From Squalus acanthias (lineage: Eukaryota): a stretch of 64,000 bases of DNA. The translations under genes were made by a program, and so were the position numbers. The notes beneath the pieces are model-generated. The model saw only the letters and a list, made by a program, of their open reading frames with translations. It had not been told where the DNA came from and made no database searches. Below are positions 8,370 through 60,399 of this stretch, one piece after another. Each line of letters opens with the position of its first letter. Positions within the stretch are counted from its first letter, which is position 1. The stretch spans positions 100,504,001 through 100,568,000 of the forward strand of contig CM059431.1 of assembly GCA_030390025.1 (NCBI GenBank). Direction: 5' to 3'.

Positions 8370-9290
8370 CATGGGGAGTAGAAGTTGTGTATATGGATCT
8401 TCTGAAGGTGTTTGATACAGTGTCTCATAAGAGTCTGGTCAGAAAAATTCAGGCGTATGGTACAAGAGGAAATGTAGCAGCGAGGATAAAAAGATTGCTG
8501 ACACAAAAGCAAAGGAAGGTATTGTTCAGATTGAAGAGAGGTCGGGAGGGGTCCCCCCCAGGGGTCAGAAGGGGTGTGTCCCCGGGGGTCGAAGGGGTGT
8601 CCCCCGGGGGTCGAAGGGTTGTCCCCCGGGGGTCGAAGGGGTGTCCCCCGGGGGTCGAAGGGGTGTCCCCCCCAAGGGGTCGAAGGGGTGTCCCCCCCAA
8701 GGGCTCGGAAGGGGTGTGTCCCCCAGGGGTCGAAGGGGTGTTCCCCCCCCCAAGGGCTCGGAAGGGGTGTTCCCCCCTGCAAGGGCTCGGAAGGGGTGTC
8801 CCCCAAGGGTTGGAAGGGGTGTGTCCCCAGGGGTCGGAAGGGGTGTGTCCCCAGGGGTCGGAAGGGGTGTGTCCCCAGGGGTCGGAAGGGGTGTGTCCCC
8901 ACAGGTCGGAAGGGGTGCCCTCCAGGGGTCAGTGCTGGGTCCACTTTAGCTTTTCTACATATAGATGATTTTTAAGTTGCGTATAGGGGGACGCCTCTTG
9001 AAATTGGCTGATTACACAGAAGTAGGGGATTTGGCAGACAGTGAGGAATGACTGTAAAAGACTTCAGGAAGGCACGGACAGATTAGGGAACAGGTGACAG
9101 TTACAATTTATTGCAGGTAACTGGGAGGATAAACAAGGTATCAGAGCATATGCTCAATGTCAAAATACTAAAGGGTGTGGAAGAACAGAGAGATCTAGGG
9201 GTTGAAATACATAATTCCCAGAAAGTACATGTGCAGTAGATAAAGCCAACAAGTTCTGAGTTTTATAAATAGGGGCAGAGAGCACAATGA
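8370..9290 (+). mobile_element. Degenerate CR1 RT fragment interrupted by a minisatellite
   Basis: VVYMDLLKVFDTVSH..LVRKI before the array, QGSVLGPL after it. Confidence 0.8.
8548..8930. repeat. GC-rich minisatellite, ~21-27 bp units (GGGTCGGAAGGGGTGTGTCCCCAG)
   Basis: About 15 tandem units visible directly. Confidence 0.95.
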
Positions 9291-10730: not shown

Positions 10731-11860
10731 CAGGCATGGTAGAAGGAGGGAGTCAGGAGTTCAAGTGTTTCCACACAACTACAAGTGGGGTCATGATAAA
10801 GTACTCGTTTTGCACTTATACCAGTTTTTTGGTATTAGCGAGGGTAGAAAAGGAAGAACGGGGAATAGCAGACTACCACCAGAAGTTGAAACAAGGATAG
10901 GGGTGGAATTCAGGAAGAACGTCCATCTACTTATCTGAACTGCCTCCTGGTCAATCCAAGGGTGAGGTCGACTCCGAGCTGGGTTTTTTGACACTAATTT
11001 GCTAGAAAAGGGTATTTGAGGGGAATGGAGCCAAGGCGGGTGATGGAGTTAGGCAACCATGATCTTATTGAATGGCAGAATAGGCTCGAGGGGCTGAATG
11101 GTCTACTCCTGTTCCTAATGTTTATTCAAAAGTACTACTTTCAGTTTATTTACAACAGCAAAGGAGTGCAGACTCCATTCCGACTATAAATAGGCCAACA
11201 GAGACAATTGGAAAAACAATCTCAATAGTCAGACATTAGCTCTCATGGAATGGCCTGCGTTTCAGAACTTTACTGTACGTGTTTGCATTTATATAATGCT
11301 TTACCACAACCTCAGGACATCCCACATTGCATCATTGTTGGAACATGGAGAAGGAAGAGGCAGAGAGCTTGATGGAGTTAGCTTAGCATATAGTATAGAA
11401 CATAAGAAATAGGAGCAGGAGGAGGCCATACAGCCCCTCGAGCCTGCTCCGCCATTCAATAAGATCATGGTTGATCATCCACCTCAACTCCACTTTCCCG
11501 CCCGATCTCCATATCCCTTGATTCCCCTAGAGCCCAAAAATCTATCGATCCCAGCCTTGAATATACTCAAAGACTCAGCATTCACAGCCCTCTTGAGTAG
11601 AGAATTCAAAAGATTCACAACCCTCTGAGTGAAGAAATTCCTCCTCATCTCGGTCCTAAATGACCTACCCCTTATCCTGAGACTATGCCCCCTAGTTCTA
11701 GTCCCTCCAGCCAGGGGAAACAACCTCTCAGCATCTACCATGTCAATCCCCTTCAGAATCGTTGCTTAACCAGGAGCCAATGTAGATCAGCAAGCACAAA
11801 GGTGATGGGTAAACGGGACTTGGTGCGAGTTAGGAACCGGCAGCCAAGTTTTGGATCACC

Positions 11861-13740
11861 TCAATATCCCTTCAGAATCTTGTATGTTTCAATGAGATCA
11901 CCTCTCATTCTTCTAAACTCCAGAGAGTATAGGCCCATTCTACACAATCTCTCATCATTGGACAGCTCTCTCATCCCAGGAATCAATCTAGTGAACCTTC
12001 GTTGCACCGCCTCCAAGGCAAGTATATCCTTCCTTAGATAAGGAGACCAAAACTGTGCACAGTTATCCAGGTGTGATCTCACCAAGGACCTGTACAATTG
12101 TAGCAAGACTTCCTTACTCTTATACTCCAACCCCCTTGCAATAAAGGTCAACATGCCATTTGCCTTCCTTATTGCTTGCTGTACCTGCATGCTAGCTTTC
12201 TGTGTTTCTTGCACGAGGACACCCAAATCTCTCTGAACACCATTTAAAAAATATTCTGTTTTTCTATTCTTCCTACCAAAGTGAATAACCTCACATTTCC
12301 CTACATTATACTCCATCTGCCACCTTACTGCCCACTCACTTAGTTTATCTATATCCCTTTGCAGACTCTTTGTGTTCTCCTCACAGCTTACTGTCCCACC
12401 TAGCTTTGTATCATCAGCAAACTTGGATACATTACACTCGGTCCCTTCATCTAGGTCATTAATATAAATTGTAAATAGCTGAGGCCCCAGCACTGATCCT
12501 TGCGGCACCCCACTAGTTACAACCTGCCAACCTGAAAAAGACTCGTTTATCCCTACTCTCTGTTTTCTGTCCATTAACCAATCCGCTATCCACGCTACTC
12601 TATTACCCCCAACCCCATGAGCCCTTATCTTGTATAATAACCTTTTATGTGGCACCTTATCGAATGCCTTTTGACAATCCAAATATACTACATCCACTGG
12701 TTCCCCTTTATCTACCCTGCTAGTTACATCCTCAAAAAACTCTATAAATTTGTCAAACATGATTTCCCCTTTCATAAAACCATGTTGACTCTGCCTGATC
12801 ATGTTGTGATTTTCTAAGTGCCCTGATACCACTTCCTTAACAATGGATTCCAGCATTTTCCCGACAATTGATGTCAGGCTAACTGGCTTTTAGTTCCCTG
12901 TTTTCTCTCTGCCTCCTTTCTTGAATAGCGGTGTTACATTTGCGACCTTCCAATCCGCTGGGACCATTCTAGAATCTAGGGAATTTTGGAAGATCAAAAC
13001 CAATGCATCCACTATCTCTGCAGCTACCTCTTTTAGAACCCTAGTATGTAGGCCGTCAGGTCCAGGGGATTTGTCGGCTTTTAGTCCCATCAGTTTCTCT
13101 AGTACTTTTTCTCTACTTATATTAATTACTTTAAGTTCCTCACCCTCATTAGACCCTTGGTTCCCCACTATTTTTGGTGTGCTTTTTGTGTCTTCTACTG
13201 TGAAGATAGATAAAAAATATTTGCTTAACGTTTCTGCCATTTCCTCATTCCCCATAATAATTTCTCCTGTCTCAGCCTGTAAGGGACCAACGTTTACTTT
13301 TGCTACTCTCTTCCTTTTTACATAATTGTAGAAGCTCTTACAATCTGTTTTTATATTTCTTGCTAGTTTTCTCTCATTCTATTTTTTCCCTTTTCATCAA
13401 TTTTTTGGTCATCCTTTGCTGGTTTCTGAAACTCTCTCAATCCTCAGGCTTACTACTATTCTTCGCAGCATTATAATCTGCTTCTTTCAATCTAATGCTA
13501 TCCTTAACTTCTTTAGTTAGCCACGGATGGATCACTTTTCCCATGGAGTTTTTGTTTCTCAATGGAATGTATTTTTGTTGAGAATTATGAAATATTTCTT
13601 TAAATGCTAGCCACTGCTTATCTACCGCCATACCTTTTAATCTATTTTTCCAATCTACCGTAGCCAACTCACCCCTCATACCTATGTAATTGGCTTTATT
13701 TAAGTTTAAAACTCTAGTTTCGGACATAGGCAAGTCACTC
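11861..13740 (-). pseudogene. CR1 ORF2 linker + reverse transcriptase (frameshifted/stop-interrupted)
   Basis: ORFs 11861-12856, 12890-13255 and part of 13437-13940 carry canonical non-LTR RT motifs. Confidence 0.9.
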
Positions 13741-14277
13741 TCAAACTTAGGGCTCGATTTTGCCAGGCCCGAGGAGGCGGGATTGGAGGCGTGAGTTGTT
13801 AAAATCGCCAAAAATGGTGGGCGGGCCTGATCCCACCTCCATCCCGCCTCCGAGCAATTTTCCCAAAGGCGTGTTTTCTGACCCCCTTTCCATCCCGCCT
13901 CCAAGAGGCGGGATAGGCCCTTAAGGCCCTTAACAACCACTTAATAGCCTCTATAATCCCATTTTGAGAGGCCTTTCCAATTTTTAGTCATTCTCCCCAT
14001 CCCTCACGCCTCCTCTGGAACACGCCAGGTAATGCTGGCGGCCTCACAAGTGGATTGCTTACGAACAGCTGCAGCTCCACCATTACAAAGGAGTTTTCAC
14101 CAATGATCATTTGCAGGTGGCAGAACTTTGTTGTTTCAGGTCTGGGGGAACTTTTAGTAGGCATACTCAGTGTTGTGGAAGTTTGGAGCCTGACACCCAT
14201 CTCCAGTGTGACCTCCTGGGAAACCCCTCTCCCCACTTTGACTAAGCGCTTCCTCAACTGAGGCATATACCAGAAGC

Positions 14278-14505
14278 ATGGCGACCATTTAATTCCTTTC
14301 CTCCTGGACATCAGATTCGGATGAAGACCAGCCGCGGCAGCAGCAGAACCATGAGTAACAGCAGCACCAACAGCAGGAGCATCAACAGGAGCGCCAAGCT
14401 GCTAGTCACCCACCTGAAGATGCACAGGCCAGAAGTCGCCAGAGCGCGACCATATTGCTGCCCGGGATGGCAAGGGACGCACTCATGTTGGCCAGATTTG
14501 CTTAG
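14278..14505 (+). pseudogene. Probable internally deleted Harbinger transposase remnant (N-terminal D/E/Q-rich stub fused to C-terminal tail)
   Basis: ATG..SDSDEDQPRQQQ.. then HIAAR/MARDALMLARFA*; convergent with the Myb gene as expected for Harbinger; no DDE core visible. Confidence 0.45.
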
Positions 14506-14763
14506 CCTGTACAATCAAACACTTTTGCCTCGCACCTTCTTACCAGAGCATCGACAATGGACAAGAACCTGCGGATTCCTATCACTCTGACCACCATACT
14601 GACAATTGCAAGTCACTCTAAGCCCTCAATGTGGAAGTCCCATTTGCGAAATGACACAGGCCACAACTTCAACAGTTTGCCATCAGAATTTTTTATCACA
14701 ACAAGCAACTGGTGGCATTTCAAAAATAAACACAACATAACACCCAAGTGACTACCCTTGTGA

Positions 14764-16705
14764 CTACTTGTGCATTATCTTCCTCTTACGCGTGCTCCTA
14801 CGTGGTGCTTCCCCTGTGGCTTCAGCAGATATGGAGGCCCCTTGCTCACTTTCTTGCTGCTCCTGTCTCAACACCTTTGGCGGCCGTCCTCTGGGGTTGC
14901 GAACCTGTGAGGGCTCGGCAACAGTCTGCTGCTCCTACGGCTGTGCAGGGGATGAGACGCCCATCTCAGTTGGGTGAGGTCTCTGGTGGGGCTCTGACCG
15001 AGGGCTTTGCAGTGGCATGGTCGTTTGAGCGCTTGCAGAGGAGCCCCCACTTCCTTGTTGTCTGCCACCAACATCCCTCTCCTGGGTCAGCCCCACTTCA
15101 GAGCTAGCAAGTGGCTTGACAGCACCTTGCTGCACTTCAGGGGGGCCATGAGGACCTGTTTCTGCACTGGAAGTCCTACTCCAGAGGACTTCCATGAAGG
15201 TCTGGTTTCTCTGCTCAGTAGCTGACCATTGCTCCTCAAGAGATGCCAGTCTATTCTGAACAATGACCATGTTTTCTACACTCTGGCGACTTAGCTCCTC
15301 CATGGCCGTAGCCATCCTCTCCTCTACTGTAGCCATCCCTTCCACGGAGGTTGCCATCCGTTCCGTGGTGATGCGTTCATGCGCCAATGCCTCCACAAAG
15401 GCTCTGCTCATGTTCGCAATGGACTCCTCCATTCGCTCGACACTCGCAGCGACCCTGGAGACAAAACCTGCCAGAGACTCCTGCACCTATTCCTGGAGTT
15501 CCAGCACCGCTCTCCTTCTGGATGGACCCGGAGGCACAGGGTCGACAATGCAGCTGAGCCGAGCTGGCAGAGTCCTGCACCCTCCGACGAGGACTCTCCA
15601 CTGCTGTCCCTGTCTCCACCATCTGCTGATGCTCACTTGTGAGCTGTGATACACCAGGTGCCAACACTACTCTATCTCGCGAAGGTCTCACCGAGGTGTG
15701 AGTGTCTGCGCTGGTGCTGCATGCGCTGAATTCTGCTGAGGCTGCGCCCTCAGAGGTTGCAGCTTCCTCTGAGGAGTCTGGAAGCTCAGGCTCTTCCTCC
15801 TGGACACTGGGGACAGGGGCTTTCGATGGTCCTGTGGGGGAGTAAAGGAAAGAGTTAGAGATGTGAGGTCAAGGTTACATGAACATTGAATAGTGCAGAT
15901 GATCATAAGTCAATCTGTTAGAGCATCAGATTCATTATCAGTGACTCATGCAATGTCAATGAGAGAGATGCCAAACTATTCTGTCACCAGCTTGCTACGA
16001 TGCGCCCATCTGTCCATCCCCCACTTGGGAATCCTCCTCGATCCTGGCGATTTCCAGGGCCGCCTCCTCCCAGGCGGTGAGCTGAGCTACTGAGGGTGGC
16101 CCTCCTCCTGTCATGGCTCTTTCCCTCTTATTGTTGGCTCTCTTTTCCTGCAATGAGGGACACAAGTGGAGTTTGAGGGAGAATGAAGGAGTGAGTGTAG
16201 ATAATCCATAGCATAGATGCTTAGAAGGATACAAAGGACCATCCCTGTGTGTTGAAAGTTGTTGTTGTCATGGCATCACAGTAATAGGGAGTGTGAGGGC
16301 TGCATGGTCGAATAGTTAAGTGAATGTGACCTTCGAGAGAGAGGGAATGGGTAAGGGTGCAGGCATGTAAGTGTCAAGTGGCATGTGGAGGAAGAGGTTG
16401 GCAAAGCAGAGTGCTAGTGAGGAAAGGCGATGGGGATCAGATTGAGGGTGATGGGAAAGTCATACTCACTTTTCCTGTGCGGAGAAGATCATGAAACCTC
16501 TTCCTGCATTGCAGCCAGGTTCTGCGGCTCAGCTCCTCCTGGGACCCCCTGGGCCACTTGCAGCCACACAGCTTTTGTCTGCTGGGGTAACTTTTTTCTC
16601 CGAGGAAGGGAACAGCACCAACTTATTACATCTGGCTCCGTGCACCAGAGCTTGGAGGGAGGGCTCATCAAACCGAGGTGCACACTTTTGCTTGAACGTG
16701 GACAT
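14764..16705 (-). pseudogene. Harbinger Myb/SANT-like DNA-binding protein, 3 exons (16705-16470, 16147-15988, 15831-14764), decayed
   Basis: Exon 1 APRFDEPSLQALV..VWLQVA..RRTWLQCRKRFHDLLRTGK|GTGAGT; exon 2 CAG|EKRANNKRERAMTGGGPP; exon 3 acidic linker, coiled coil, PRGRPPK, RRSTRKRK*; frameshifts and premature stops. Confidence 0.85.
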
Positions 16706-16988
16706 TGTCGGGAAATCAACACCTTCATACAATTTGCAGAGCCTTGGCAGTCTCCAGAGGAAGCAAGGCTGCTTGCAGGTCTTAAATCCAGCAGCATTGA
16801 TGACGTCATCGGAGGCGACTTTCTGTATGAAAAGACTCATTGGGCCAGGGGTTCCCACACGCAGGAAATCAATTGCCCAACTAGGGGAAAATCCCACTTT
16901 TTCAGCACTTCACTTAGGAGTCGGGGTCCTGACACGATTTCCACCTGACACACCCCAGCCCGCCCACACTGACAAAATCCAGCCCTTA

Positions 16989-17728
16989 ATGTCAAATTCT
17001 ATCATGTTATGATCACTCTGCCCCAGAGGATCTTTTACTATGAGATTGCTAATTAACACTGTCTCATTATACAATACAAGATCTAAAATAGCCTGTTCCC
17101 TGGTTGGTTTCATGACGTATTGTTCTGGGAAACTGTCCCGAATGCATTCCATGAACTCGTCCTCCAGACTACCATTGCCAATTTGATTTGTCCAGTCTAT
17201 ATGAAGATTAAAGTCTCCCACAATTATTGCATTACCTTTGTTACAAGCTCCTACTATTTCTTGATTAATATTCTGTCCAACGGTATAGCTACTGTTAGGG
17301 GGCCTTATCTCTACCCATACTGATTTTACTTCCTGATCTTCCGAGCCGAGATCCTTTCGCTCTACTGTCCTTATGTCATCCTTTATTATCAGAGCTACCC
17401 CTCCTCCTTTTCCATTCTGCCTGTCTTTTCGAAATGTCAAGTACCCTGGAACATTTAGTTCCCAACCTTGGTCACCTTGCAACCACGACTCTAATGGATA
17501 TTAGATCAAACCCATTTATCTCTATTTGTGCCACTAGTTACTGTGCTGTATATCCTCTGTAATCCTATGTAGTTCGTCTATCTTGTTACGAATGCTTCGT
17601 GCATTCAGATAAAGAGCCTTTAATTTAATTTTTTTACCATTATTCCCTGCTTTGACCTTATTCTCTGCTGCACTGCTACCGTTAAACTCTCTGTCCCTTC
17701 CGGTCACACTCTGCTTATTTTTACCCAA
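16989..17728 (-). pseudogene. CR1 ORF2 apurinic-like endonuclease domain
   Basis: ORFs 16910-17482 and 17534-17728 with APE motifs. Confidence 0.9.
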
Positions 17729-17806
17729 ATCGCTACACTGCTCTATTGCCTTGACCTTTCTCTTTAGATTTCTAAATTTCCCCTCGCCTGACCCCTCCCC
17801 CCGTTT

Positions 17807-18922: not shown

Positions 18923-19417
18923 AAGTGCTTTGCATATTGACTGAAGAAATAAAGGTATTGAATCTGAAGCAATGACTATCTTTGTTACTACTCAAGTAAA
19001 AAGACAATGTGTATCTCTTCATTACGTCAATCTTATCCAATGAGTTACTTTTGAAGTACAGCCATTGTATGTATTTTGCACTTTTCAACATCCCAAGAGA
19101 TTTGTGTGGAGGAATTTGTTCACATCCTCCAAGTCATAGCTAGTGAGATTTTCTCTGCTCAAGTGCACAGAAAATATCACAGAAATGTAAGTACAAAGGG
19201 AGGTCACTGCTAGCTCCACAAAGCCTAGGTCCCTTTTCTAACACTTTCCCTGTATCCCTTAATATTTTTCAAGTGCCTATCATAATCCAAGATTATGAGT
19301 GGTCAATGATTCAGAAACTGCATGAGTAGAACACTCGTTTCTGCTTGCTTTATGCATGGGTTGTAATATATTAATAACTTATAGAGTAAGGTTTTTTAAC
19401 ACTATTAATTGTATGAG

Positions 19418-19885
19418 TGTCAGCTCAGTGGGTCGCACTCTCGCCTCTGAGTCAGAAGGTTGTGGGTTCAAGTCCCACTCCAGAGACTTGAGCTCAAAAC
19501 TCTAGGCTGACATTCCCAGTGCAGTACTGGGGGAGTGCTGCACTGTTGGAGGTACCGTCTTTCAGATGAGACGTTAAACCGAAGCCCAGTCTGCTCTCTC
19601 AGGTGGATGTAAAAGATCCCACGACACTATTTTGAAGAAGAGCAGGGGAGTTATCCCCGGTGTCCTGGCCAATACTTATCCCTCAATCAACATCACTAAA
19701 ACAGATGATCTGGTCATTATCACATTGCTGTTTGTGGGAGCTTGCTGTGCGCAAATTGGCTAGCGCATTTCCTACATTACAACAGTGACTACACTTCAAA
19801 AAGTACTTCATTGGCTGGAAAGCGCTTTGGGACGTCCGGTGGTCGGGAAAGGCGCTGGAGAAATGCAAGACTTTCTTTCTTTCTG
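19418..19885 (+). mobile_element. Deu-domain SINE, full length
   Basis: tRNA-like head (GGTTCAAGTCC), Deu body, (CTTT)n tail. Confidence 0.88.
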
Positions 19886-20639: not shown

Positions 20640-21165
20640 TAAAAAGGATATAGAGGCACTGGAGAGGGTCAAAAAAGATTTACAAGGATGATACCAGAAA
20701 TGCGAGGGTATGCCCATCAGAAAAGGACAAACGGGCTGAGTCTCTGTTCTCTTGAAAAGAGAAGGTTGAGGGGTGACCTACTAGAGGTCTTTAAAATTAT
20801 GAAAGGTTTTGATAGAGTGGATACAGAGAGAATGTTTCCACTTGTGAGGAAGAGCATAACTAGAGGCCGTCAATAGAAGATAGTCACCAAGAAATCCAAT
20901 AGGGAATTCAGGAGAAACTTCTTTACCCAGAGAATGGTGAGAATGTGGAACTCGCTACCACAGGGAGTGGTTGAGGCGAATAGTATAGATGCATTTAAGA
21001 GGAGGCTGGACAAGCATATGAGGGAGAAGGGAATAGAGGGTTATGCTGATAGAGTTAGATGAGGAAAGACAGGAGGAGGCTCGAGTGGGGCATAAACGCC
21101 AGCATGGGCTGGTTGGGCCGAATGGCCTGTTTCTATGCTGTATATCCTATATAATCCTATGTAAA
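20640..21165 (+). mobile_element. CR1 3' fragment
   Basis: SLEKRRLRGDLLEVFKIMKG; 3' UTR. Confidence 0.88.
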
Positions 21166-22933: not shown

Positions 22934-23512
22934 GTCAGCCGTGGCTCAGTGGGTAGCACCCTCGCTTCTGAGTCAGAAGGTTGTGGGTTCATATTCGCAC
23001 TCCAGAGACATAAGCACAAAAAGCTAGGCTGACACTCCCAGTGCAGTGCTGAGGGAGCGCCGCACAGTCGGAGGGGCAGTACTGAGGGAGCGCCGCACTG
23101 TCGGAGGGGCAGTACTGAGGGAGCGCCGCACTGTCGGAGGGGCAGTACTGAGGGAGTGCTGCACTGTCGGAGGTGCCGTCTTGCGGATGAGACGTTAAAC
23201 CGAGACCCCCGTCTGCCCTCTCAGGTGGACGTAAAAGATCCCATGGCCACTATTTCGAAGAAGAGCAGGGGGGGAGTTCTCCCCGGTGTCCTGGCCAATA
23301 TTTATCCCTCAACCAACATCACTAAAACAGATTATCTGGTCATTATCACACTGCTGTTTGTGGGAGCTTGCTGTGCGCAAAATTAGCTGCCGCGTTTCCC
23401 ACATTACAACAGTGACTACACTTCAAAAGTACTTCATTGGTTGTAAAGCGCTTTGGGACGTCTGGTGGTCGTGAAAGGCGCTGGAGAAATGCAAGTCTTT
23501 CTTTTCTTTTTC
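22934..23512 (+). mobile_element. Deu-domain SINE, full length, with internal 33-bp tandem expansion
   Basis: Head TGGCTCAGTGG; 4 copies of GCAGTACTGAGGGAGCGCCGCACTGTCGGAGGG at 23043-23173. Confidence 0.9.
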
Positions 23513-27232: not shown

Positions 27233-27400
27233 AGAACATAAGAAATAGGAGCAGGAGTCGGCCATTCGGCCCCTCGAGCCTGCTCCGCCATTCAATAAGA
27301 TCATGGCTGATCTTCTACCTCAACTCCACTTTCCCGCCTGATCCCCATATCCCTTGCTTCTCTTAGTATCCAAAAATCTATCGATCTCAGCCTTGAATAA
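27233..27400 (-). mobile_element. CR1 3' end
   Basis: AAGAACATAAGAAATAGGAGCAGGAGT.. tail. Confidence 0.85.
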
Positions 27401-27654
27401 ACTCTGTTGGTTATATGCTTGAATGTTTCATAAAACAAAGACCATTAAGCAGTAGACATTATAATGTAGAAAAACATATATGATAATTTCAGGGTGCAAT
27501 GGAAATGCAATTGACCTGTTTCTGAATTAATTGGTTTTCCTTAATAATGGAAAGAGAAGGGATTGCTTGCGTGTATTACTCTTTAATATGCTCAAAAGCA
27601 ATAGTTTGGAATTGACTGTGGCAGTCAAGAGCCATTTCTGCTTCTTCCCTCTCT

Positions 27655-27865
27655 TTGAAAGAGAGCAGGGGAGTTCTCTCTGCTGTCCTGGGCCAACATT
27701 TACCCCTCAACCAACATCACTAAAAACAGATTATCTGATCATTATTACACTACTGTTTGTGGGAGCTTGCTGTGCGCAGATTGGCTGCTGCCATTCCAAA
27801 ATTACAACAGTGACTACGCTTCGAAAGTACTTCATTGGCTGTGAAATGCTTTGAGACGTCCTGAA
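27655..27865 (+). mobile_element. Deu-domain SINE fragment
   Basis: Body identity with other copies. Confidence 0.8.
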
Positions 27866-28064
27866 CAGGAACATCTGACACAACAAGCCTACAAACAAAC
27901 CGAGAAACCTTTTGTTTGTCTAGTTATTCTTTTTGGAGTGTTTGTGAATTTATAGGTGGCTTTGCTTAAAGAAATGACCAAGCACAACAGCAGAGATTGT
28001 GACCTCAACTCTCTTTATGGCAAAGTGGTTTTTTTTGTATAGGAAAAGATGTTGGAAAGAGAAC

Positions 28065-28512
28065 TGATGAGGAGAGATTGAGTAGACTAGTATATTCCTA
28101 GAGTTTAGAAGAATGAGAGGTGATCTCATTGAAACGTATAAAATTCTTAAGGGGCTTGACAGGGTAGATGTAGGGAGGATGTTTCCCCTGGCTGCAGAGT
28201 CTAGAACCAGGGGTCACAGTCTCAGAGTAAGGGGTTGGCCATTTAGGACTGAGATGAGGAGAAATGTCTTCACTCAGAGGGTGGTGAATCTTTGGAATTC
28301 TCTACCTCAGAGGGCTGTGGAGGCTCAGTCATTGAGTTTATTCAAGACAGAGATCGATAGAGTTTAGGATACTAAGGGAATCAAGGGATATGAGGATCGG
28401 TTGGGAAGGTGGAGTTGAGATAGTAGATCAGCCACGATCTTACTGAATGGCGGAGCAGGCTCGAAGGACAGAATGGCCTACTGCTGCTCTATTTCTTATG
28501 TTCTTATGTTCT
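28065..28512 (+). mobile_element. CR1 3' fragment
   Basis: ORF 28113-28367; (TTCTTATG)n tail. Confidence 0.9.
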
Positions 28513-28651
28513 AACATGAAAGTAATGCTTTTTTTTAACATCATAACACAGTCCACAATTACAAACCCTCCCACCTGATTTTATAGAGTGAACTTGGTTG
28601 ACAGAGGAATTGAGCTCGTGGGAGGACACGGATAAAAAGCAACAAATAAAT

Positions 28652-28925
28652 AAATCCAATAGGGAATTCAGGAGAAACTTCTTTACCCAGAGAGAGTGGT
28701 GCAAATGTGGAACTCGCTCCCACAGGGAGTGGTTGAGGCGAATAGTATAGATACATTTAAGGGGAAGCTAGATAAACACATGAGGGAGAAAAGAATAGAA
28801 GGATATGTTGATAGGGTGAGATGAAGAGGGGTGGGAGGAGACTCGTGTAAAGCATAAACACCGGCACGGACCAGTTGGGCCGAATGGCCTGTTTCTGTGC
28901 TCTACATTCTATGCAATTCTATGTA
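28652..28925 (+). mobile_element. CR1 3' fragment
   Basis: Matches 22350-22615. Confidence 0.85.
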
Positions 28926-29829
28926 CGAGTTCATCAAAGAACCAATCAGTAAGTAGCAAAATCAATGCCTAATTTGTCTTATTCGTCATTTCCCAAGCTA
29001 ACAACTGCAGGTTATCCAATGGTCGGTGGGTTGGATGGGACACAGTGCTGTCAATCAGCTGGAGTGACAGCTGAAATATTGGCAAGCCCAACCGTCCTGA
29101 GAGGTGGTCCTGCCAGTATGGCAAGTCTCCGGTATAAACAGGGCCATGGAAAGCATACCGTCATTTTCATGGCAAATTATGACCTGTATCGGGTAACAAA
29201 TATTGAGTGGTTACTGATAAAAGTTTCTTTTTTGAACTTTCAAATTCAGCATTTTAGAAAGTGAGCATCACTATTTCAAAAGCCTTTGTTTCACCACCTT
29301 CGTGCATTCCAGAAGAGGAGATCTGAATGGTACTTAAACTAACAAAAAAAGACATTTAACACCCCTTTATGATTCATCCTACCTCTGGAATATTATGCCA
29401 ACTACTACATATACACTCTTACACCAACCTAAAACTAAGATGCATTTTAGTGCTACAACGGATACTCCTAAATTAACAAACCCCACCTTTAGGGAAAGAA
29501 TTCACTCTACTAACACTGCTTGAGCTAGGAGTGCTTATCAATGAAGAAGGACGACTTGTCCTTCAAGATTCTTCTGTCCCTATGGGAAGTATTCAACCTC
29601 TGCTCACCATTTTCATCTGACTCAGTGGTTAAAGTGGAATTTATTGCGAGGAAGTGCTCAGTCTTCATCCCCTCCGCCTGATGTTTGCACATCTAGTATT
29701 GTGAAATCCAGGGGAGTAGACGAGAAAGCTGATCTGTACTTTAAGAGCTTGGGGCAGACTAAGAGAATTAGTTGGGCTGTTAATAAGCAAAGTTATTAAG
29801 TAGCAGTGACCCAGAAAAAAAGTTTCAGA

Positions 29830-30555
29830 ATGAGACCATTCGGCCCATCGTGCCTGTGCCGGCTCTTTGAAAGGGCTCTCCAATTAGTCCCACTCCCCCC
29901 CTGCTCTTTCCCCACAGCCCTGCAAATTTTTCCCCTTTCAAGTATTTATCCAATTCCCCTTTTGAACATTCTATGTAATTAAGGGGTGATCTATTTGAGG
30001 TGATTTAAGCTGATCAAAGGAGTTGATAGGGTAGATAGAAAGAAACTATTTCCTCTGGTAGGGGGAGTCCAGAACAAGGGGGCATAACCTTAAAATTAGA
30101 GCCAGGCCGTTCAGTGGTGATGTCAGGAAGCACTTCTTCACACAAAGGGTGGTGAAAATCTGGAACTCTCTCCCCCAAAAAGCTGTTGAGGCTGGGGGTC
30201 AATTGAAAATTTCAAAACTGAGCTCGATAGATTTTTGTTGGGTAAAGGTATTAGGGAACCAAGGCGGGTAGATGGAGTTAAGGTACAGATCAGCCATGAT
30301 CTAATAGAATGCCAGAACAGGCTTGAGGGGCTGAATGGCCTGCTCCTGATCTTATGTTCCTATTTATATAGTGCCTTTCACGACCTTAGTACATCCCAAA
30401 TCACTTTACCGCCAACAAAGTACTTTTTTGAAGTGTAGTCACTGTTGTAATATTGGAAACGCTGCAGCCAATTTGCACATAGCAAACAGTAATGTGACAA
30501 TGACCAGATCATCTGTTTCACTGATGTTGGTTGAGGGATAAATATTGGCCAGGGC
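29830..30555. mobile_element. Cluster: antisense CR1 tail (29830-29965), sense CR1 3' fragment (29980-30360), antisense Deu-SINE (30360-30555)
   Basis: Identity to other copies in the window. Confidence 0.8.
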
Positions 30556-31480: not shown

Positions 31481-32491
31481 GTTGCGGTTCTGAGGAATTT
31501 GTTATGGCAATATGACAAAAAAAGGAAAACCATTTAAGGTGGTGAGAAATGGTAACACTGCCACCAAACACATTCCCAGTGAGCCAGTTAGCAATGGCGC
31601 TATCAACACAAAAACTAAAATTAGGCAACCCCAAGGGTGCCAGTGCATAAAGAAGCCAGATATTAAAACAAGGATGTTGAGCATCTTCAACCAATTCTGT
31701 TGGAAGTAAGAGACAATGACGTTATTCTCCTCATTTGCTGACTAAATACAAGGGTTATTTCCCTCCTGCAAAATCATGGCTGGAAAACATTGTGTCATTT
31801 CTGACAGTGTATTCACTAGGTAGATGTTAACCAGTTTTGCCCAGGGTTCGGAGTCAGTTCTTGTGTGCTGCAATCTTGTTAGCAAAGCTCCTCGAGACTT
31901 TCTAGGAGCTTCAGCCTGGGAGTTTCTCGAAAAACTTCAATGGGGCCTAAAAGCTACCAAGGAGATTCCAGAACATTTTGAGAGAGAATCGGCAAGAAAA
32001 GGAGTAACTGATCATAGACTATAGAAGGTGAAAAATACCAAGAGAAATTTCAGGATATTTAAATGATATTCCGATGACACTAGCTGGAGGTCCTTGCAGT
32101 GACTTTTACTGAAAGCACCAAGGAGCTCACACTCAAGAGAAACCGTTCAAAGTGCAGTGTGTAAAACGTGATCTGAAAATGAAGCCGCAAAGCAGGAAAA
32201 CTGTTTGAATATACTGTGTGGACATCCAGTCACTTGACAAGACAGCAAGAAATTTACACTGGGAAGAAACCAGTCTGAATGTATAGCGTAAAAAGCTGGT
32301 TAACGTATCTGATTGCTTGATAGGGGCCACAGCATTTTCTCATAGAAAAGTGACCATATAAACGTACTGAATTAAAAAGAATTCCAGAGTCAAGGGAAAC
32401 TTCAGATACACCAACGAATTCGAACCGTAGGGTTACCAATTCTGTTAGTTAATAATATCAGCTTAAGTATCTTGCGTACTTCTCATTCCAA

Positions 32492-32895
32492 AAACTTGAG
32501 CACAAAATCTAGGCTGAGGCTCCAGTGCAGTGCTGAGGGGGTGCTACATTATCGCAGGTGCCGTCATTCGGATGGGACGTTAAACCGAGGCCCCGTCTGC
32601 CCTCTCAGGTGGACGTAAAAGATCCCACGTTACTATTTCTAAGAAGAGCCAGGGGAGTTCTCCCCGGAGTCCTGGGGCCAATATTTATCCCTCAACTAAC
32701 ATCGCTAAAAACAGATTATCTGGTCATTATCACATTGCTGTTTGTGGGAGCTTGCTGTGCGCAAATTGGCTGCCGCTTTTCTTACATTACAACAGTGACT
32801 GCACTTCAAAAGTATTTAATTGGCTGTAAAGCGTTTTGGGACGCCTTGAGGTCGTGAAAGTCGCTATATAAATGCAAGCTCTTTCTTTCTTTCTT
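32492..32895 (+). mobile_element. Deu-domain SINE
   Basis: Body and (CTTT)n tail. Confidence 0.85.
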
Positions 32896-35287
32896 ACTCG
32901 TTAATGTCAGAATTGAGACAACCTGAATTGCGTTAGCAGAAGTGCATTAATGATGAAAAAAAATGTCAGTTCATAATTTCATTGTCTGGCTTCCTCTTTG
33001 ATGATTCAGCTAGAAGGGCTTAACTCATTCACTAAATAGCATACCCTGTGATCTAAGAACAGAGTTGGCTTGTGTAGTTGTGGATATCATTTGGGCCAGT
33101 TAATGAGAGACAGTTCAAGCGAGCTAAATCGTGGGCATCTATCAATCACCGGATGTGGACAGCAAACCTCTCGAAAGTTTGTTAAAGAGGTCTTAGTTAA
33201 AGGGATTATGAGTTCAGAGTAGACTGCATAACCACCATTGGTTTCTGTGAAGTCCATCCCCAACAAATGTATATTATCCTCCATCATTTAGCAACTCCAC
33301 ACAGACCAAAATGTAATTGCACATTTGAGAGCGGAAAGACAAACTTGCTCCATATATATCTGTATGAAAACACCAAGTTGATCTCTTAATTTCTTATCAA
33401 TTTACAGAACAAAACATATAAAAATTCGCAACACTAAAAACACTCTGGCTTATTTCCTATTTCACAAACAAAATTATTTCCTGATTATTAAAAGGGCGCA
33501 CAAAATCAATTATTTTTTGTTTGGCATACCGACAGCCTATGAGATTTGATCCCGTGTATGGATGTGTGACATGGAGCTGCCAAAAATAGAGCAACTTTAT
33601 AAAATATCTCAGCTTGCAATCGGCTCGACGCTCTACGCTACTCCGTGTGGTCAAATAAAACTTAGAACGGTTTTGGCAGTTTTCATTTACATATAATTAT
33701 AGCTTTATATGAACATGACAAGTGAAAACACTCTTTGGTGGCAGACAGCACAGACTGTTGAGCCCCCCTCCCGTGATACTGGATGACAAGATGCAGCACA
33801 AACTTCATCTCCTGCTAATTAAACGAATCAATTAAGAGACTATTGTTGCAACTGTGTAACTGATGTTCTATCGTGGCAACAACAACCCCACAGGGAGGTC
33901 GTTTACTACATTAAAATGCTGTCCTCCACAACTCCATCTGATATTATTAGAAACAGTTATTTGTGTCTTGCTGTCATATCGCGAACGCAGGCAAATTATG
34001 GAAATGGGGAGGCGAAGATCAACCCAGTGTGGGATCTGATTCAGATCTGAGACCTCCAAGGGAACATTCAGCGAAATTCCAAAGTTCCCCCAAAGTTCCT
34101 TATCAGAACTGAAATATCCATCAACACAGCAACCACTTAAGACACTAAGTAAGGGTCATATATTTGCATGCTACCCTGCTAAGCTAATATAATTCAACGA
34201 GACAAATTATCATATTAAATTTACCCTCCTGAGTTAAACTGATTGAGTTTCAAATTGTTTCTGAGGTTTGTCATTAGTTTATGCTGAAGCTTAAATGCGG
34301 ATACAGAGATCTAATTGTACAGCTATAGCCTGGGTCACAGTGGAACAATCTGCATGTTTTTCGCAATATAATGTCCCACCCAGTATGTTACAGTTAATTA
34401 GATTTTGGGAAGAATGCACAGCTTATTTATATAGAGTATAGATTGTTAGATTTAGGGATGAACACTTATAAATAACCCATCATCAATGATTCCATTCCTT
34501 CAATAAACAGTTGATGAGGTTCTGGTTAATGAGGAGATTACTTAAGAGGCAATGTTCTCCGGCATCACATCGAGTCCTATTGTATTTAATCAGTACTGAT
34601 GAGCATTACTGACTGGGAATGGTTCTGATAAAGACATCTCCGCAACGACATCCCAATTAATGGGGCTCAACTATAGTACAATACTCTAACGTATAGAGTG
34701 TCCTTGCCACACAAAATGATACAATTAACAGAAGTATACTCTTGGGGTAAACTGTTAGCTCAAACAGGCTGAGCCGCCGACTCCCAAGCAGAATTTTGCA
34801 AAACCAACTCCCAAAGCTGCCCATCACTCCAACCAGCCGGCTTAGTTGCACGAGTTTGATCAGTTCTTCGGGCGCACAGCTAGATGGGGCACGACCCGAT
34901 CAATCTGTTTCAAAGCGGAAGGGAAAAACAAACAAAAACAAAAAAAAAATGCATTTCCCAAACTTGCTGCCCTTAAAGACCAACTGCTGCTGTTAATCAC
35001 AGATCCGTGTTGACGGACTTTGTGGCCCAGGTCCCATTCTCCTCGCTAGAGGGTATGAGTGGTGATAAAGGTTTATGCATAAAGCAGAATTTACTGAATA
35101 GCAACCCTCCTCCTCCCTGGCGAATGTGATGTCAGTAATTCTATTGTACAGACAGGGCACCTTTAGTACAGCATTACTTCTTCTATAAAAAAAATATATA
35201 TATTACTAATGAAGCACCGTATGTCTGCATTACAACTGCACAAAATTAATGTGTATCAAAAAGTACTCTCTTTTTTCATTTTTACAG

Positions 35288-35722
35288 TGTCAGTCGTGGG
35301 CAGCACCCTCGCCTCTGAGTCAGAAGGTTGTGGGTTCAAGTCCCACTCCAGGGACTTGAGCACAAAAATCCAGGCTGACACTCTGGTGCGGTGCTGAGGG
35401 AGCGCTGCACTGTCGAAGGTGCTGTCTTTCGGATGAGACGATGTACCGAGGCCCCCGTCCGCCCTCTCGGGTGGACGCGACAAGATCCCATGGCACTGTT
35501 TCGAAGAAGAGCAGGGGAGTGCTCCCCGATGTCCTGGCCAATACCTATCCTTCAACTAACATCACTAAAATAACAGATTACCTGGTCATTATTTCATTGC
35601 TATTTGTGGGAGCTTGCTGTGCGCAAGTGACTACACTACAAAAGTACTTTATTGGCCGTGAAGCTTTGGGATGCCCTGAGGTCTTGAAACGCGCTGTAGA
35701 AATGCAAGTCTTTCTTTTCTTT
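35288..35722 (+). mobile_element. Deu-domain SINE, near full length (antisense SINE tail follows at ~35805-35920)
   Basis: tRNA-like head, body, tail. Confidence 0.85.
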
Positions 35723-36194
35723 CATTAATCCTTTAACGCACTGCACAAGAAATAAATCGAATGAGCTGATGCTTGCCATCGATATGGACTACTCTAAGCA
35801 GTGAAAAAGAAAGACAGACAGACATGCATTTCTAGAGCGCCTTTCACATCCTCAGGACGTTCTAAAGTGCTTTACTGCCAATGAAGTACTTTTTAAAGTG
35901 TAGTCACTGTTACAATGCAGGAGTGCACATTGGTTTGTTTGCTTTTTCACTGACTGGAACTGCACAGGATATGGTGGTACAGCCAAGATCAATAACTTGG
36001 TCATGTGAAAAACCGCAGACTTATCGTTCCAAGGCACAGTGCACTGGAGCATCCCCTGAAGTTTACACAATTAAACAAAGAATCGAGTGCACCAATCCAG
36101 CATTACTAAATCCTAATGGTGCTTTACAATACCACAGGCAATCCCTTAATTGCACTATTGCATTGTACAGCTGGGATGCATCACTAAATGGTGC

Positions 36195-48069: not shown

Positions 48070-48497
48070 TAAGATGATTAAAGGAGTTGATAGGGTAGAG
48101 AAAGAGAAACTATTTCCTCTGGTGGGGGGAGTCCAGAACAATGGGTATAACCTTAAAATTAGAGCCAGGCCGTTCAGGGGTGATGTCAGGAAGCACTTCT
48201 TCACACAAAGTGTGGTGGAAATCTGGAACTCACTCCCCCAAAAAGCTGTTGAGGCTGGGGGGTCAATTGAAAATTTCAAAATTGAGATCGATAGATTTTT
48301 GTTGGTTAAAGGTTTACGGAACTAAGGCAGGTAAATGGAGTTAAGGTACAGATCAGCCATGATCTAACTGAATGGCAGTTTGGCAACACTCGGGCAAGGT
48401 GGGACTGACCCTGGGAGCCATGGCAACACTCGGGCAAGGTGGGACTGACCCTGGGAGCCATGGGTCACGAGGGGGTGAGTGGCTTCCTCCTGTTCCT
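48070..48497 (+). mobile_element. CR1 3' fragment, UTR interrupted by two inverted minisatellite units
   Basis: ORF 48074-48325; UTR resumes ..GGCTTCCTCCTGTTCCT at ~48480. Confidence 0.8.
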
Positions 48498-49622
48498 ACC
48501 CGAGTGCTGCCATGACTGCAAGGGTCAGTCCCACCTTGCCCAGAGTGTTGCCATGGCTCTCAGGGTCAGTCCCACCTTGCCTGGAGTGTTGCCATGACGC
48601 CAAGGGTCAGTCCCACCTTGCCCGGAGTGTTGCCATGGCTCCCAGGGTCAGTCCCACCTTGTCTGGAGTGTTGCTATGGCTTTCAGGGTCAGTCCCACCT
48701 TGCCCAGAGTGTTGCTATGGCTCTCAGGGTCAGTCCCACCTTATCCGGAGTGTTGCCATGACGCCAAGGGTCAGTCCCACCTTGCCAGGAGTGTTGCCAT
48801 GGCTCCCAGGGTCAGTCCCACCTTGTCCAGAGTGTTGCCATGGCTTTCAGGGTCAGTCCTACCTTATCCGGAGTGTTGCCATGACGCCAAGGGTCAGTCC
48901 CACCTTGCCCGGAGTGTTGCCATGACGCCAAGGGTCAGTCCCACCTTGCCCGGAGTGTTGCCATGGCTCCCAGGGTCAGTCCCACCTTGCCCGGAGTGTT
49001 GCCATGGCTCCCAGGGTCAGTCCCACCTTGCCCAGAGTGTTGCCATGGCTCCCAGGGTCAGTCCCACCTTGCCCGGAGTGTTGCCATGGCTCCCAGGGTC
49101 AGTCCCACCTTGCCCAGAGTGTTGCCATGGCTCCCAGGGTCAGTCCCACCTTGCCCGGAGTGTTGCTATGGCTCTCAGGGTCAGTACCCCCTTGTCCAGA
49201 GTGTTGCCATGGCTCTCAGGGTCAGTCCTACCTTATCCGGAGTGTTGCCATGACGCCAAGGGTCAGTCCCACCTTGCCCGGAGTGTTGCCATGACGCCAA
49301 GGGTCAGTCCCACCTTGCCCGGAGTGTTGCCATGGCTCCCAGGGTCAGTCCCACCTTGCCCGGAGTGTTGCCATGGCTCCCAGGGTCAGTCCCACCTTGC
49401 CCAGAGTGTTGCCATGGCTCCCAGGGTCAGTCCCACCTTGCCCGGAGTGTTGCCATGGCTCCCAGGGTCAGTCCCACCTTGCCCAGAGTGTTGCCATGGC
49501 TCCCAGGGTCAGTCCCACCTTGCCCGGAGTGTTGCTATGGCTCTCAGGGTCAGTCCCCCCTTGTCCAGAGTGTTGCCATGGCTCTCAGGGTCAGTCCCCC
49601 CTTGTCCAGAGTGTTGCTATGG
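48498..49622. repeat. 41-bp minisatellite (~27 units), GCCATGGCTCCCAGGGTCAGTCCCACCTTGCCCGGAGTGTT
   Basis: Directly visible tandem array. Confidence 0.97.
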
Positions 49623-52759: not shown

Positions 52760-53650
52760 AAGCGAGAGAGAGAATGAAGCAGGCAAAAAATGAGGGAAGA
52801 GAGAAAGAGGAGGAAAGGCAGAGAAAAGAGGGAGAAAATGAAGGGAAGAGAAGATGAGAGAAAGGGAAGATAGAGGGAGAAAGAAAAAATGCCGAGGGGT
52901 GAAAGAGAGACAATGAAAGTGAGAAAGAATTAAAAATTAAAAGCAGGAAAGTGAAAGAGGGAAACAGAGTAAGACAAGGGAGGGAGCGAGAAATAGGGCG
53001 TGAGGGAGAGAGAATAGAGAAAGAGCAAGAAAGAAAGCAAGCAAGGGAAACAAAGTGAGAAACAGAACGAACATAAGCAAGAAAAACCACAAGCTAAATA
53101 GCACGAGCAAAGCACGTAAGTGATAGCGAGGGACCGAAAAAGAGCAAGTGGAAAGACTGAAGAGGAAGCGTGAATGAATGTGTGAGAGAAACAGTGAACA
53201 ACCGAGAAACTGTGAAGGAAAGAATGAGAAAGAGAATGCGACAGAAAACATAAGTGAGGAATGTGTAAATAAAAGTCTCCCTTTTTTAAGGAGAAAGAGA
53301 GCAAAAGAGCAAGGCAGAGAGGAGCAAGTGAGCAAGAAAGAAGAAGCAAGAAAAAGAAACAGCAAACGCACAAGAGAAATAGTGAGCGAGACACAGAAAA
53401 AGGGATCAACAGATAAAAGTTTCACTGTGTAGAAAGAGAGAAAGAGTGAGGGAGAGGAGAGAGAGAAAGAAAGGGAGGGAGAAAGAAAGAAAGGGAGGAG
53501 GAAAGAAGGAAAGAGTGAGAGAGGGGAGGGGGCAGAGAGAGAGAGAGAGAGGAAGAGAGAAAGAGAGAGAGAGAGAAAGAAAGAAAGAAAGAAAGGGAGG
53601 GAGAAAGAAAGGGATGGAGAAGGAAAGAAGGAAAGAAAGAGTGAGAGATT
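52760..53650. repeat. Degenerate (GA/GAAA) polypurine tract
   Basis: Strong purine bias, (GA)n and (GAAA)n runs. Confidence 0.9.
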
Positions 53651-55045
53651 TACAGACAAAGCCCCTACTGTGCACTGTATGTTTAGAATATATCCTTGTT
53701 GTTCTATTCTGTTTTAATCTTATTGAGGTTAGAGACAGATATAACCCAAGTAACTAAAATCTGGGGTGCATTGGTACATGGAGTGATGGAATATTGGCTT
53801 ATGTCAACCACTTTGCCAAAAGTGAGCTGTTGATTCCTGCCATGTCAGTGTGGGAGGAAGGGGGAAATATATCAGAAGGAAGGTCATCCCTAGATTGCCC
53901 ATACCTAGCTGCGAATAGCTGGCTCAGAGTGGCACTACTCGGGGGCCTGGGAACCAGATGCCCTCAGAGAAGTGTCTGGCACAAGAAAACCTGGGCAGAG
54001 TAGGAAAACAAGAGCGGGAGAATTGCACCCCCGTAAAAAAAAAAGTAAGGCAGAATCTGACGAGGAAGTTACTGGCGGGTGTGTTGAAAAAGCACAATGA
54101 GGAGTTTTTTTGTTATTGAGGTGAAAAGTACCGTCTAGACAGAAAGACATACAACTACAGACCAGCAGCAGAAAGTCCTCACTTCTTGCAGCTTGAATGG
54201 ATTAAATAAACTCATTATTTCAACTTATAAAACTGAACCATCCTAATTCCACTTTATTGTCAGAGCAGGTTATCCTGTGGTTCTCTTTCAATGAAGAGGG
54301 TTTCAAGTGACACTGCACCCAATTTTTTCCTGCTTTTGCCATCTAAAATTAGTTCCACTTAGCTGGGTATCAATGACCTATTCAATGTGAGATGTAGCAA
54401 GGGTACAATCAGCACGATACTTACCGCCTCCACTGTACGCTTATCACAAGTCGAGGATGAGCAAAGGTAACAAGGCGTTAAAGGATCGAAACAAAGGTAC
54501 CATTCATACAGCAGTGTTTCAGAACATTTCAAGGCTTTGCATACAGTCATTTGCTATTCTAGGGGGAAGAGATTATCAACTGTTGTGGACAAAATTAAAT
54601 TGTAGACTTTTTGGGAAAACTCATAATAAGCGAGAAAATTATACATAACACGATATCGCCGCCACCCCCCACCCGTCTTCCATGTCCACTTCAGCTTTAT
54701 TTGTTATTGAAATAAAGATTTTTGTTTATTCATCGCCCTTAGTACAAAGAATTCAAATCGCACTGCTTCAGCCAAACAATGGAATACATCCGTGGAAACA
54801 TTTCTCCAGTGTATTTTTAAAGTTGCGCTTAAGAGGTCTGCTACATCCTTCCCCAAAGGATTGGCAAGTTTAACCAGCGAGCGACTGAGTCAGGCACACA
54901 GTAAAGGTCCACAGTCCAGCCCTAGTCGTTGAGTTAGCTCTTCTACGCTGAAGCATCAGCTGTGGTGACTGGCCTCGGTGCCTTTGGATTGCAAAGAGGA
55001 AAACTGGTTCGGAGTCCTGCTCCCGATCGCCCAGCAGTGATCCTG

Positions 55046-60230: not shown

Positions 60231-60399
60231 CTCAAAAGGAACCCACCCCACCCCCCCAAGAACATGCAAGAAAAATACTTTGCGCAGGCTTTTAAAGTAG
60301 AATAGGCCTTTTAGATTTAAAGTTGTTATCGTCAGCAGTTTGTGTAACTGTCCTCGTACACCTACGTCAAAAGATATTTTGTCTACTGTGGTTATCTGG

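Follow-up and report, generated by a model that had tools for sequence, protein, structure and literature searches.

The insertion and its genes

The window analysed here is a stretch of 64,000 nucleotides from Squalus acanthias (contig CM059431.1, positions 100,504,001 to 100,568,000 of the forward strand), and all positions below are counted from its first letter. Positions 13750 to 16985 of the window were found to be occupied by a 3,236-bp transposable element of the PIF/Harbinger type, which interrupts a retroposon of the CR1 type and has a guanine-plus-cytosine content of 53%, versus 40% in its flanks. The element carries a broken three-exon Myb/SANT-like gene on the minus strand and a short stub where the transposase gene would be expected. 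The features of the locus are listed below.

11400 to 13749, minus strand: second open reading frame (ORF) of the host CR1, a long interspersed nuclear element (LINE); decayed reverse-transcriptase part, lying downstream of the insertion; Pfam RVT_1, E 1.9e-27
13747 to 13749, no strand: left target-site duplication (TSD), TTA, read directly
13750 to 13766, plus strand: left terminal inverted repeat (TIR), 17 nt, complementary to the right TIR at 15 of 17 positions
13776 to 13914, two copies on each strand: four exact copies of the 8-mer ATCCCGCC, clustered close to the left end; candidate Myb-binding sites
14278 to 14505, plus strand: 228-bp stub, ATG to TAG, 75 codons, internal stops at 14290-14292 and 14356-14358
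14764 to 15831, minus strand: exon 3 of the Myb-like gene, broken by a frameshift (15547) and by stops at 14935-14937 and 15487-15489; its native stop is at 14766-14764
15988 to 16147, minus strand: exon 2 of the Myb-like gene (TGGGPP motif), internal stop at 15995-15997, AG/GT boundaries in phase
16470 to 16705, minus strand: exon 1 of the Myb-like gene (Myb/SANT-like domain), two frameshifts, near 16595 and near 16535
16969 to 16985, minus strand: right TIR, 17 nt, in agreement with the left TIR at 15 of 17 positions
16986 to 16988, no strand: right TSD, TTA, read directly
16989 to 17800, minus strand: host CR1 LINE, endonuclease region, lying upstream of the insertion; continuity of the frame and Pfam Exo_endo_phos_2, E 1.1e-8

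Excision of the element together with one TTA produced a single open minus-strand frame for a CR1 endonuclease-region protein (MIEFDIK/FESD). Public contigs of uninterrupted CR1 copies connected position 13746 directly to position 16986 (three contigs in sequence run X1 and one in run X2). The initial annotation had placed the ends at 13750 and 16985 on the basis of the TIRs, the flanking TTA and the restored CR1 frame, and all of these were confirmed. The insertion is therefore real, with PIF/Harbinger anatomy and exact boundaries.

Because the right flank matched Exo_endo_phos_2 and the left part matched RVT_1, the host was identified as a CR1-type LINE; its left part agreed with other CR1 copies in the window at 67-91% of positions. 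Because the element is nested inside this CR1, it is the younger of the two, as the initial annotation had also claimed. The same CR1 contains a 30-bp insertion at 17540-17569, which lies between the copies of a 5-bp direct repeat (TAGTT), restores the frame when removed and resembles a repeat tail at 21129-21163 (89% over 35 nt). On account of this resemblance, the insertion is probably an extremely 5'-truncated retroposon.

As a control for chance, TWA-bounded 17-nt inverted arms with at most two mismatches and 0.5-6 kb apart were sought in 30 resampled 64-kb windows, which yielded two such pairs in total. The real window also contained two, namely, the ends of the element and a pair at 27299-30301. 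The latter pair is formed by a dispersed repeat present twice in opposite orientations and was rejected as a transposon. When compared by BLASTN with the whole window, the element matched only itself, and a scan of the window for the 14-nt TIR ends with up to three mismatches returned scattered matches, none of which adjoined element sequence. No second Harbinger was found in the window by Pfam searches of 38 of its 86 ORFs of at least 110 amino acids.

Every one of the four exact matches of ATCCCGCC in the window falls in the leftmost 165 bp of the element. The expected number for the whole window was 0.9 copies, and four copies were reached in none of 100 shuffles, the motif having been picked after the sequence was viewed. 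The right end of the element contained no exact copy, and an overlapping 8-mer had one match there with one mismatch. The left-end cluster may represent a Myb-binding array, a candidate function for a motif chosen post hoc.

The Myb/SANT-like gene extends from 16705 to 14764 on the minus strand and comprises approximately 485 codons in three exons, whose AG/GT boundaries are in matching phases. The product of exon 3 would contain an acidic and serine-rich linker, a heptad-rich coiled-coil-like stretch and a basic tail with a GRP motif. When both breaks of exon 1 were bridged with X, three of its four Pfam hits were Myb families, the best hit being Myb_DNA-bind_5 (E 0.0087, 16.4 bits, with a cut-off of 21.7). 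No Myb match was returned by Pfam for the unbroken pieces of the gene or for exon 1 bridged at the first break only. In the Atlas, the exon 2 peptide lay near Myb_DNA-bind_5 clusters at 0.76-0.87, values that serve as leads only, and its three best hits (0.93-0.94) were unnamed. A search of the PDB with the Myb-like protein gave one weak match, to DnaJ homolog C2 (E 0.12). Searches of protein collections, which seem poor in vertebrate proteins, returned no relative among 2002 candidates for the exon 3 piece or among 24 for the exon 2 piece, negatives that carry little weight given this composition. Although no single score passes, the Pfam hits, the Atlas neighbours and a comparison with published motifs (see below) converge, and the Myb-like identity of the encoded protein appears well supported.

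In total, the gene contains three frameshifts and three internal stops and is a pseudogene in this copy. The statement of the initial annotation that the element kept its Myb gene therefore holds for the DNA, in which all three exons are present, but not for a gene in working order. Among the public runs listed for the stretch, none was marked as RNA, and no intron-skipping joint was present among the 15 contig joints listed of 146, where the RNA nature of run X16 is a guess. Rfam returned no matches.

Only 228 bp occupy the position expected for the transposase gene. This stub lies tail to tail with the Myb-like gene, and an AATAAA signal is located at 14725-14730, 220 bp downstream of it. 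Neither DDE_Tnp_4 nor any other DDE family was detected by Pfam in seven pieces and five ORFs of the element, so the absence of the transposase core was borne out, as was the extent of the stub. With no DDE ORF and no intact Myb ORF, this copy is a non-autonomous rather than an autonomous PIF/Harbinger element. Because of its position, its orientation and the presumed likeness of both its ends to vertebrate Harbinger transposase termini, the stub was read as transposase: it probably consists of the two ends of a Harbinger transposase gene, approximately 55 codons from its start and approximately 20 from its close, brought together by a deletion whose junction would lie at about 14440-14450. 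The sole protein match of the stub, a tandemly repetitive protein with no matched stretch, was rejected as a chance hit.

The family in public sequence runs and the transposase deletion

Family depth was taken from related public runs. The element stretch was present, in whole or in part, in 20 of the 24 runs listed, and 12 of these, from organisms A-D and four studies, held at least half of its words (word share 0.65-0.69). Contigs or reads from four of the 24 runs were aligned at 85% likeness: contigs from X1, X2 and X16 (organisms A, B and F) and raw reads from X22 (organism I). The evidence draws on none of the runs with small word shares (X13-X15, X17-X21, X23 and X24). All 30 bins of the stretch were covered in X1, X2 and X16. 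In X1, 93,472 contigs fell on the stretch, mostly 90-99% alike, and the summed depth inside the element was 0.2-2.5 million, versus 18-135 for long single contigs.

Minimum copy numbers were estimated by dividing the summed depth, which is not itself a copy number, by the largest possible overlap (31) and by a single-copy depth of 20-60. For X1, at least approximately 130-400 copies were obtained at the ends, 330-980 in the junction bin and 850-2,500 in exon 3, figures that are good to an order of magnitude only and concern the organisms of the runs, perhaps not that of the window. A lack of other copies, which the initial annotation had named as grounds for refuting its reading, was not borne out: with every bin covered in three contig runs, the element belongs to a multi-copy family.

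Lesions of this copy were compared with the family, the figures being drawn from the 40 variant rows listed of 553, among which the exon 2 stop does not appear. The two exon 3 stops (at 14937 and 15489) were absent from 96-100% of the family depth, and the stub stop at 14356 was absent from 99.5%. The extra base at 15547 was absent from 34%, 89% and 47% of the depth, and in addition 80 and 91 X1 contigs were clipped there. Around 16532-16542, in exon 1, the depth dropped to one contig. Because two stops and, in part, one frameshift are absent from most of the family depth, it may be concluded that this copy decayed after its insertion. At the positions compared, the Myb-like frame of the family appears to be more open than that of this copy.

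Several further observations were made in the same runs. The X1 depth was 1.4-2.5 million over Myb-like exon 3 (14740-15900), versus 0.2-0.65 million at 13750-14090 and 16546-16985, which may reflect subfamilies sharing exon 3 or a faster decay of the ends of this copy. Paired loose ends at 16236-16261 in X1 and X2 indicate that the family has intron 1 sequence that is missing here. Public contigs also contained the joints 14269-14619, 14351-14740, 14435-15109 and 13896-14011, whose short sides of 21-32 letters make them leads only; they suggest further internal-deletion forms of the family. In X22, 59 raw reads fell on 13966-17061, all of them partial, mostly below 95% identity and none at 99%; past the end bin, the CR1 flanks received none. 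These reads perhaps represent a remotely related family of a different organism and were not counted as support. Among metagenome contigs, there were no relatives in 216 pattern matches and no matches to a pattern located just downstream of the junction.

The central issue is whether the transposase deletion belongs to the family or to this copy alone. The depth of the junction bin was 605k in X1 and 420k in X2, versus 1166k and 937k and 647k and 670k, respectively, in the neighbouring bins, that is, 52-65% of the neighbouring depth. At position 14436 itself, the depth was 361k in X1 and 376k in X2, and one X1 contig extended 42 letters from 14436 to its end. No loose end was present at 14436-14450 among the 19 listed (of which 3,049 further ones exist), unlike the indel in intron 1, which gave paired loose ends in X1 and X2 among the same 19. 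Fewer than 0.5% of the aligned contigs in these two runs continued into unlike sequence. Four X1 contigs jumped from 14269 or 14272 to 14618 or 14619, omitting nearly the whole stub, and these joints point to other transposase-less forms. With good probability, the deletion is shared by the family.

Taken together, the findings are probably best explained by one old and now dead insertion of a Myb-retaining non-autonomous PIF/Harbinger family that was mobilised in trans. The ancestor would have been a two-gene element, with a transposase gene on the plus strand and a three-exon Myb/SANT-like gene on the minus strand, tail to tail. An internal deletion would have removed the inner part of the transposase gene; the shortened element would still have possessed the Myb-like gene, the subterminal repeats and its two ends. 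From what is established for Harbinger biology, the transposase of an autonomous relative, supplied in trans, could have copied this shortened element to many sites. The entry of one copy into a TTA of the older CR1 is demonstrated by the locus itself. Stops and frameshifts of its own then accrued, as is evident for two Myb-like stops and one stub stop and largely so for one frameshift. This copy now encodes nothing, and its ends could at most still serve as a substrate. The Myb gene may have been retained passively, a reading that we favour slightly over retention for helping the spread of the element.

In a bolder form of this explanation, the family would be dominated, across several related species of vertebrates (probably sharks), by a 3.2-kb transposase-less element whose Myb/SANT gene is intact and selected; its hundreds or thousands of copies would depend on the transposase of rare partners, and the ATCCCGCC cluster at the left end would act as a binding array in cis. 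This form is put forward tentatively, as the less probable side of the matter.

A number of observations weigh against a Myb-retaining family with a shared deletion. The runs may belong to species other than that of the window, the best word share being 0.69. The junction was unbridged among the 24 contig pieces listed (132,899 further pieces exist), and one of them, X1-4, begins at 14448. The 42 letters of the X1 contig that extends from 14436 may include an unaligned tail, and the joints omitting the stub are unreliable, their short side being only 21-22 letters long. The loose-end consensus before 14470 agreed with this copy at 25 of 30 letters, and three of the five mismatches fell within the six letters 14439-14444; these mismatches are also compatible with another sequence upstream, for instance, a transposase tail that was never deleted. 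The single frame of the stub in this copy hinges on base 14469, an extra base that was missing in 90% (X1), 77% (X16) and only 11% (X2) of the depth. The stub had no relative in 1.84 billion representative proteins, and the Atlas gave nothing above 0.86 for it. On the side of the Myb-like gene, the Pfam score falls below its cut-off, and the searches with exons 2 and 3 gave no relatives. An autonomous partner was not seen.

Several of these points bear on the alternative of post-insertion decay, namely, that a full two-gene Harbinger lost its transposase core at this locus only and that the family is otherwise ordinary and autonomous. The heavy decay of this copy would accord with such an event, since it has other private indels (in intron 1 near 16236-16261, in exon 1 and at 15547), as would the unbridged junction among the pieces listed, the clustering of consensus mismatches at the inferred junction and a junction bin 35-48% below its neighbours. 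The dip in this bin is, however, explicable by private substitutions and the 14469 indel. Moreover, a majority of copies bearing the core should give shared loose ends on both sides of the junction, whereas there were none among those listed, and both the depth at 14436 and the scarcity of contigs running on into unlike sequence argue in the same direction. We consider post-insertion decay at this locus improbable, although not negligibly so.

It is very improbable that 14278-14505 is non-coding or captured sequence rather than a transposase remnant, in which case the link to a transposase would be unreadable from this copy. The stub is a low-complexity sequence rich in Gln and His with no matches in the Pfam, protein and Atlas searches, and the published Harbinger transposases compared, in the available portions of their sources, were trimmed to the core, so that their termini were not comparable. 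Against this, an ATG, a stop and the AATAAA signal occur at the expected site of a convergent partner gene, the family lacks the stub stop at 14356, and we take the stub ends to be like those of vertebrate Harbinger transposases.

NAIF1 and the MSANTD genes are Harbinger-derived genes of vertebrates, and the exon-intron boundaries here are still canonical and in phase, but a lone Myb/SANT gene that has been domesticated or still works is highly improbable at this locus given three frameshifts and three stops, several of them private and two of the breaks inside the Myb domain, together with the retained TIRs and TSD and the high copy number.

By itself, this copy is an ordinary genomic fossil, and the interest rests with its family. 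If a number of related vertebrates do share a Myb-only family of high copy number, the asymmetry between the DNA-binding and DDE functions would be shown to recur. Its copies would suffice for a test of selection on the Myb gene during amplification by the ratio of non-synonymous to synonymous substitution rates (dN/dS), and the family would hint at how the lone Myb/SANT genes domesticated by vertebrates arose. A selected Myb-only family would bring to vertebrates, on a far larger scale, the split of functions described as new in 2026 for the worm Caenorhabditis inopinata (PMC13668399). If, on the other hand, the deletion is private to this copy, the element is a routine dead transposon and none of this follows.

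Other repeats in the window

The window contains many copies of a dispersed repeat of approximately 380-470 bp with 75-92% identity, which is SINE-like (short interspersed nuclear element) by size and number and had no match in Rfam; it is a putative Deu-domain SINE. Among its copies are the following.

1 to 381: dispersed repeat
1278 to 1671: dispersed repeat
2042 to 2374: dispersed repeat
19416 to 19884: dispersed repeat
23142 to 23510: dispersed repeat
32481 to 32894: dispersed repeat
35286 to 35728: dispersed repeat

Two more reverse-transcriptase frames were found at 59213-60310 on the minus strand and at 61633-62715 on the plus strand (RVT_1, E 6e-16 and 6e-17, respectively). The frame at 61633-62715 matched the host CR1 at 77%, whereas that at 59213-60310 is richer in guanine and cytosine, did not match the host CR1 and may belong to another retroelement family. 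A tandem array with a 41-bp unit occupies 48502-49622 (27 copies, 91% matches) and contains an open frame of 416 codons; two more units lie at 48381-48463. A Pfam hit of this array to T3SS_ExsE had no matched stretch and was rejected as a repeat artefact. Long GA-rich simple repeats and short GC-rich minisatellites with periods of 24 and 33 bp are located at 55045-56437, 53431-53640, 8540-8930 and 23043-23173.

Comparison with known Harbinger systems

The comparisons below refer to the available portions of the cited papers. PIF/Harbinger transposition requires both element proteins, the Myb-like protein binding the ends and recruiting the transposase (PMC2836001, PMC9179366). In the case of Harbinger3_DR, the transposase requires the Myb-like protein to be imported into the nucleus, and action in trans on deletion derivatives is possible (PMC2836001, PMC9179366). 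Internal deletion with retention of the ends and movement in trans also characterises Harbinger3N_DR, the mPing/Tourist miniature inverted-repeat transposable elements and the Medicago MtPH derivatives (PMC2836001, PMC2213677). However, mPing and 67 non-autonomous MtPH elements are non-coding in these sources, whereas the element described here has a whole Myb-like gene with both introns (PMC2836001, PMC2213677).

Among fish, the elements compared were Harbinger-2_DR, Harbinger-3_DR, Harbinger-1_GA and the coelacanth Harbinger-1_LC, Harbinger-3_LC and Harbinger-4_LC (PMC9179366). Their Myb-like proteins follow the same order as that encoded here, a likeness judged by eye rather than by an alignment score: a basic and aromatic start, tryptophan-rich Myb helices, TGGG(P) and L(T/A)x(x)EE, followed by an acidic linker and a coiled-coil-like stretch and, in Harbinger-3_LC, also by a basic GRP-type tail (PMC9179366). 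Fish Harbingers likewise have a 3-bp TSD, but they contain both ORFs and TIRs quoted at 25-50 bp, unlike the present element with no DDE core and 17-bp TIRs (PMC9179366). According to the portion available, Etchegaray et al. reported that both ORFs persist in all fish Harbingers studied and that there are none in the elephant shark, and they called for a survey of further cartilaginous fish (PMC9179366). In the grey reef shark, Tourist/Harbinger elements are the commonest DNA transposons of a genome rich in CR1 and L2, a figure that is a RepeatMasker class total only (PMC12498223); the repeat landscape of the window appears to resemble that of this genome. The anole paper, as far as its available part goes, contained only domesticated Harbinger transposases and nothing closer (PMC3014272), and nothing closer was present in the available part of a review (PMC5381603).

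In the open literature, with subscription journals, Repbase and Dfam outside the scope of the search, no Myb-only Harbinger family was found to have been described from sharks or other vertebrates. The family may therefore be undescribed, though a library name for it may already exist in Repbase or Dfam. The Myb/MADF-only arrangement as such is already published, for C. inopinata (PMC13668399). In that worm, MADF-only derivatives of Harbinger-1M_cIno have expanded, and a single DDE locus is still intact (Sato et al. 2026, PMC13668399). In the part of their paper available, Sato et al. stated that separate descent of DNA-binding-only and DDE-only Harbingers had not been reported before, and trans-complementation is hypothetical there (PMC13668399).

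The C. inopinata elements encode a MADF domain (PF10545), are approximately 1.6 kb long and have MADF only in 19 of 258 copies, and a new insertion has been caught (PMC13668399). Unlike them, the present element has a Myb_DNA-bind_5-like domain, a length of 3.2 kb and a 228-bp stub, and it belongs to a vertebrate family that is probably far larger. It nevertheless resembles Harbinger-1M_cIno and Harbinger-2M_cIno in its TIRs, the TWA duplication, a DNA-binding gene without a DDE ORF, amplification as a family and proposed mobilisation in trans (PMC13668399), and the eroded family Harbinger-2M_cIno corresponds to the decayed state of the copy at this locus (PMC13668399).

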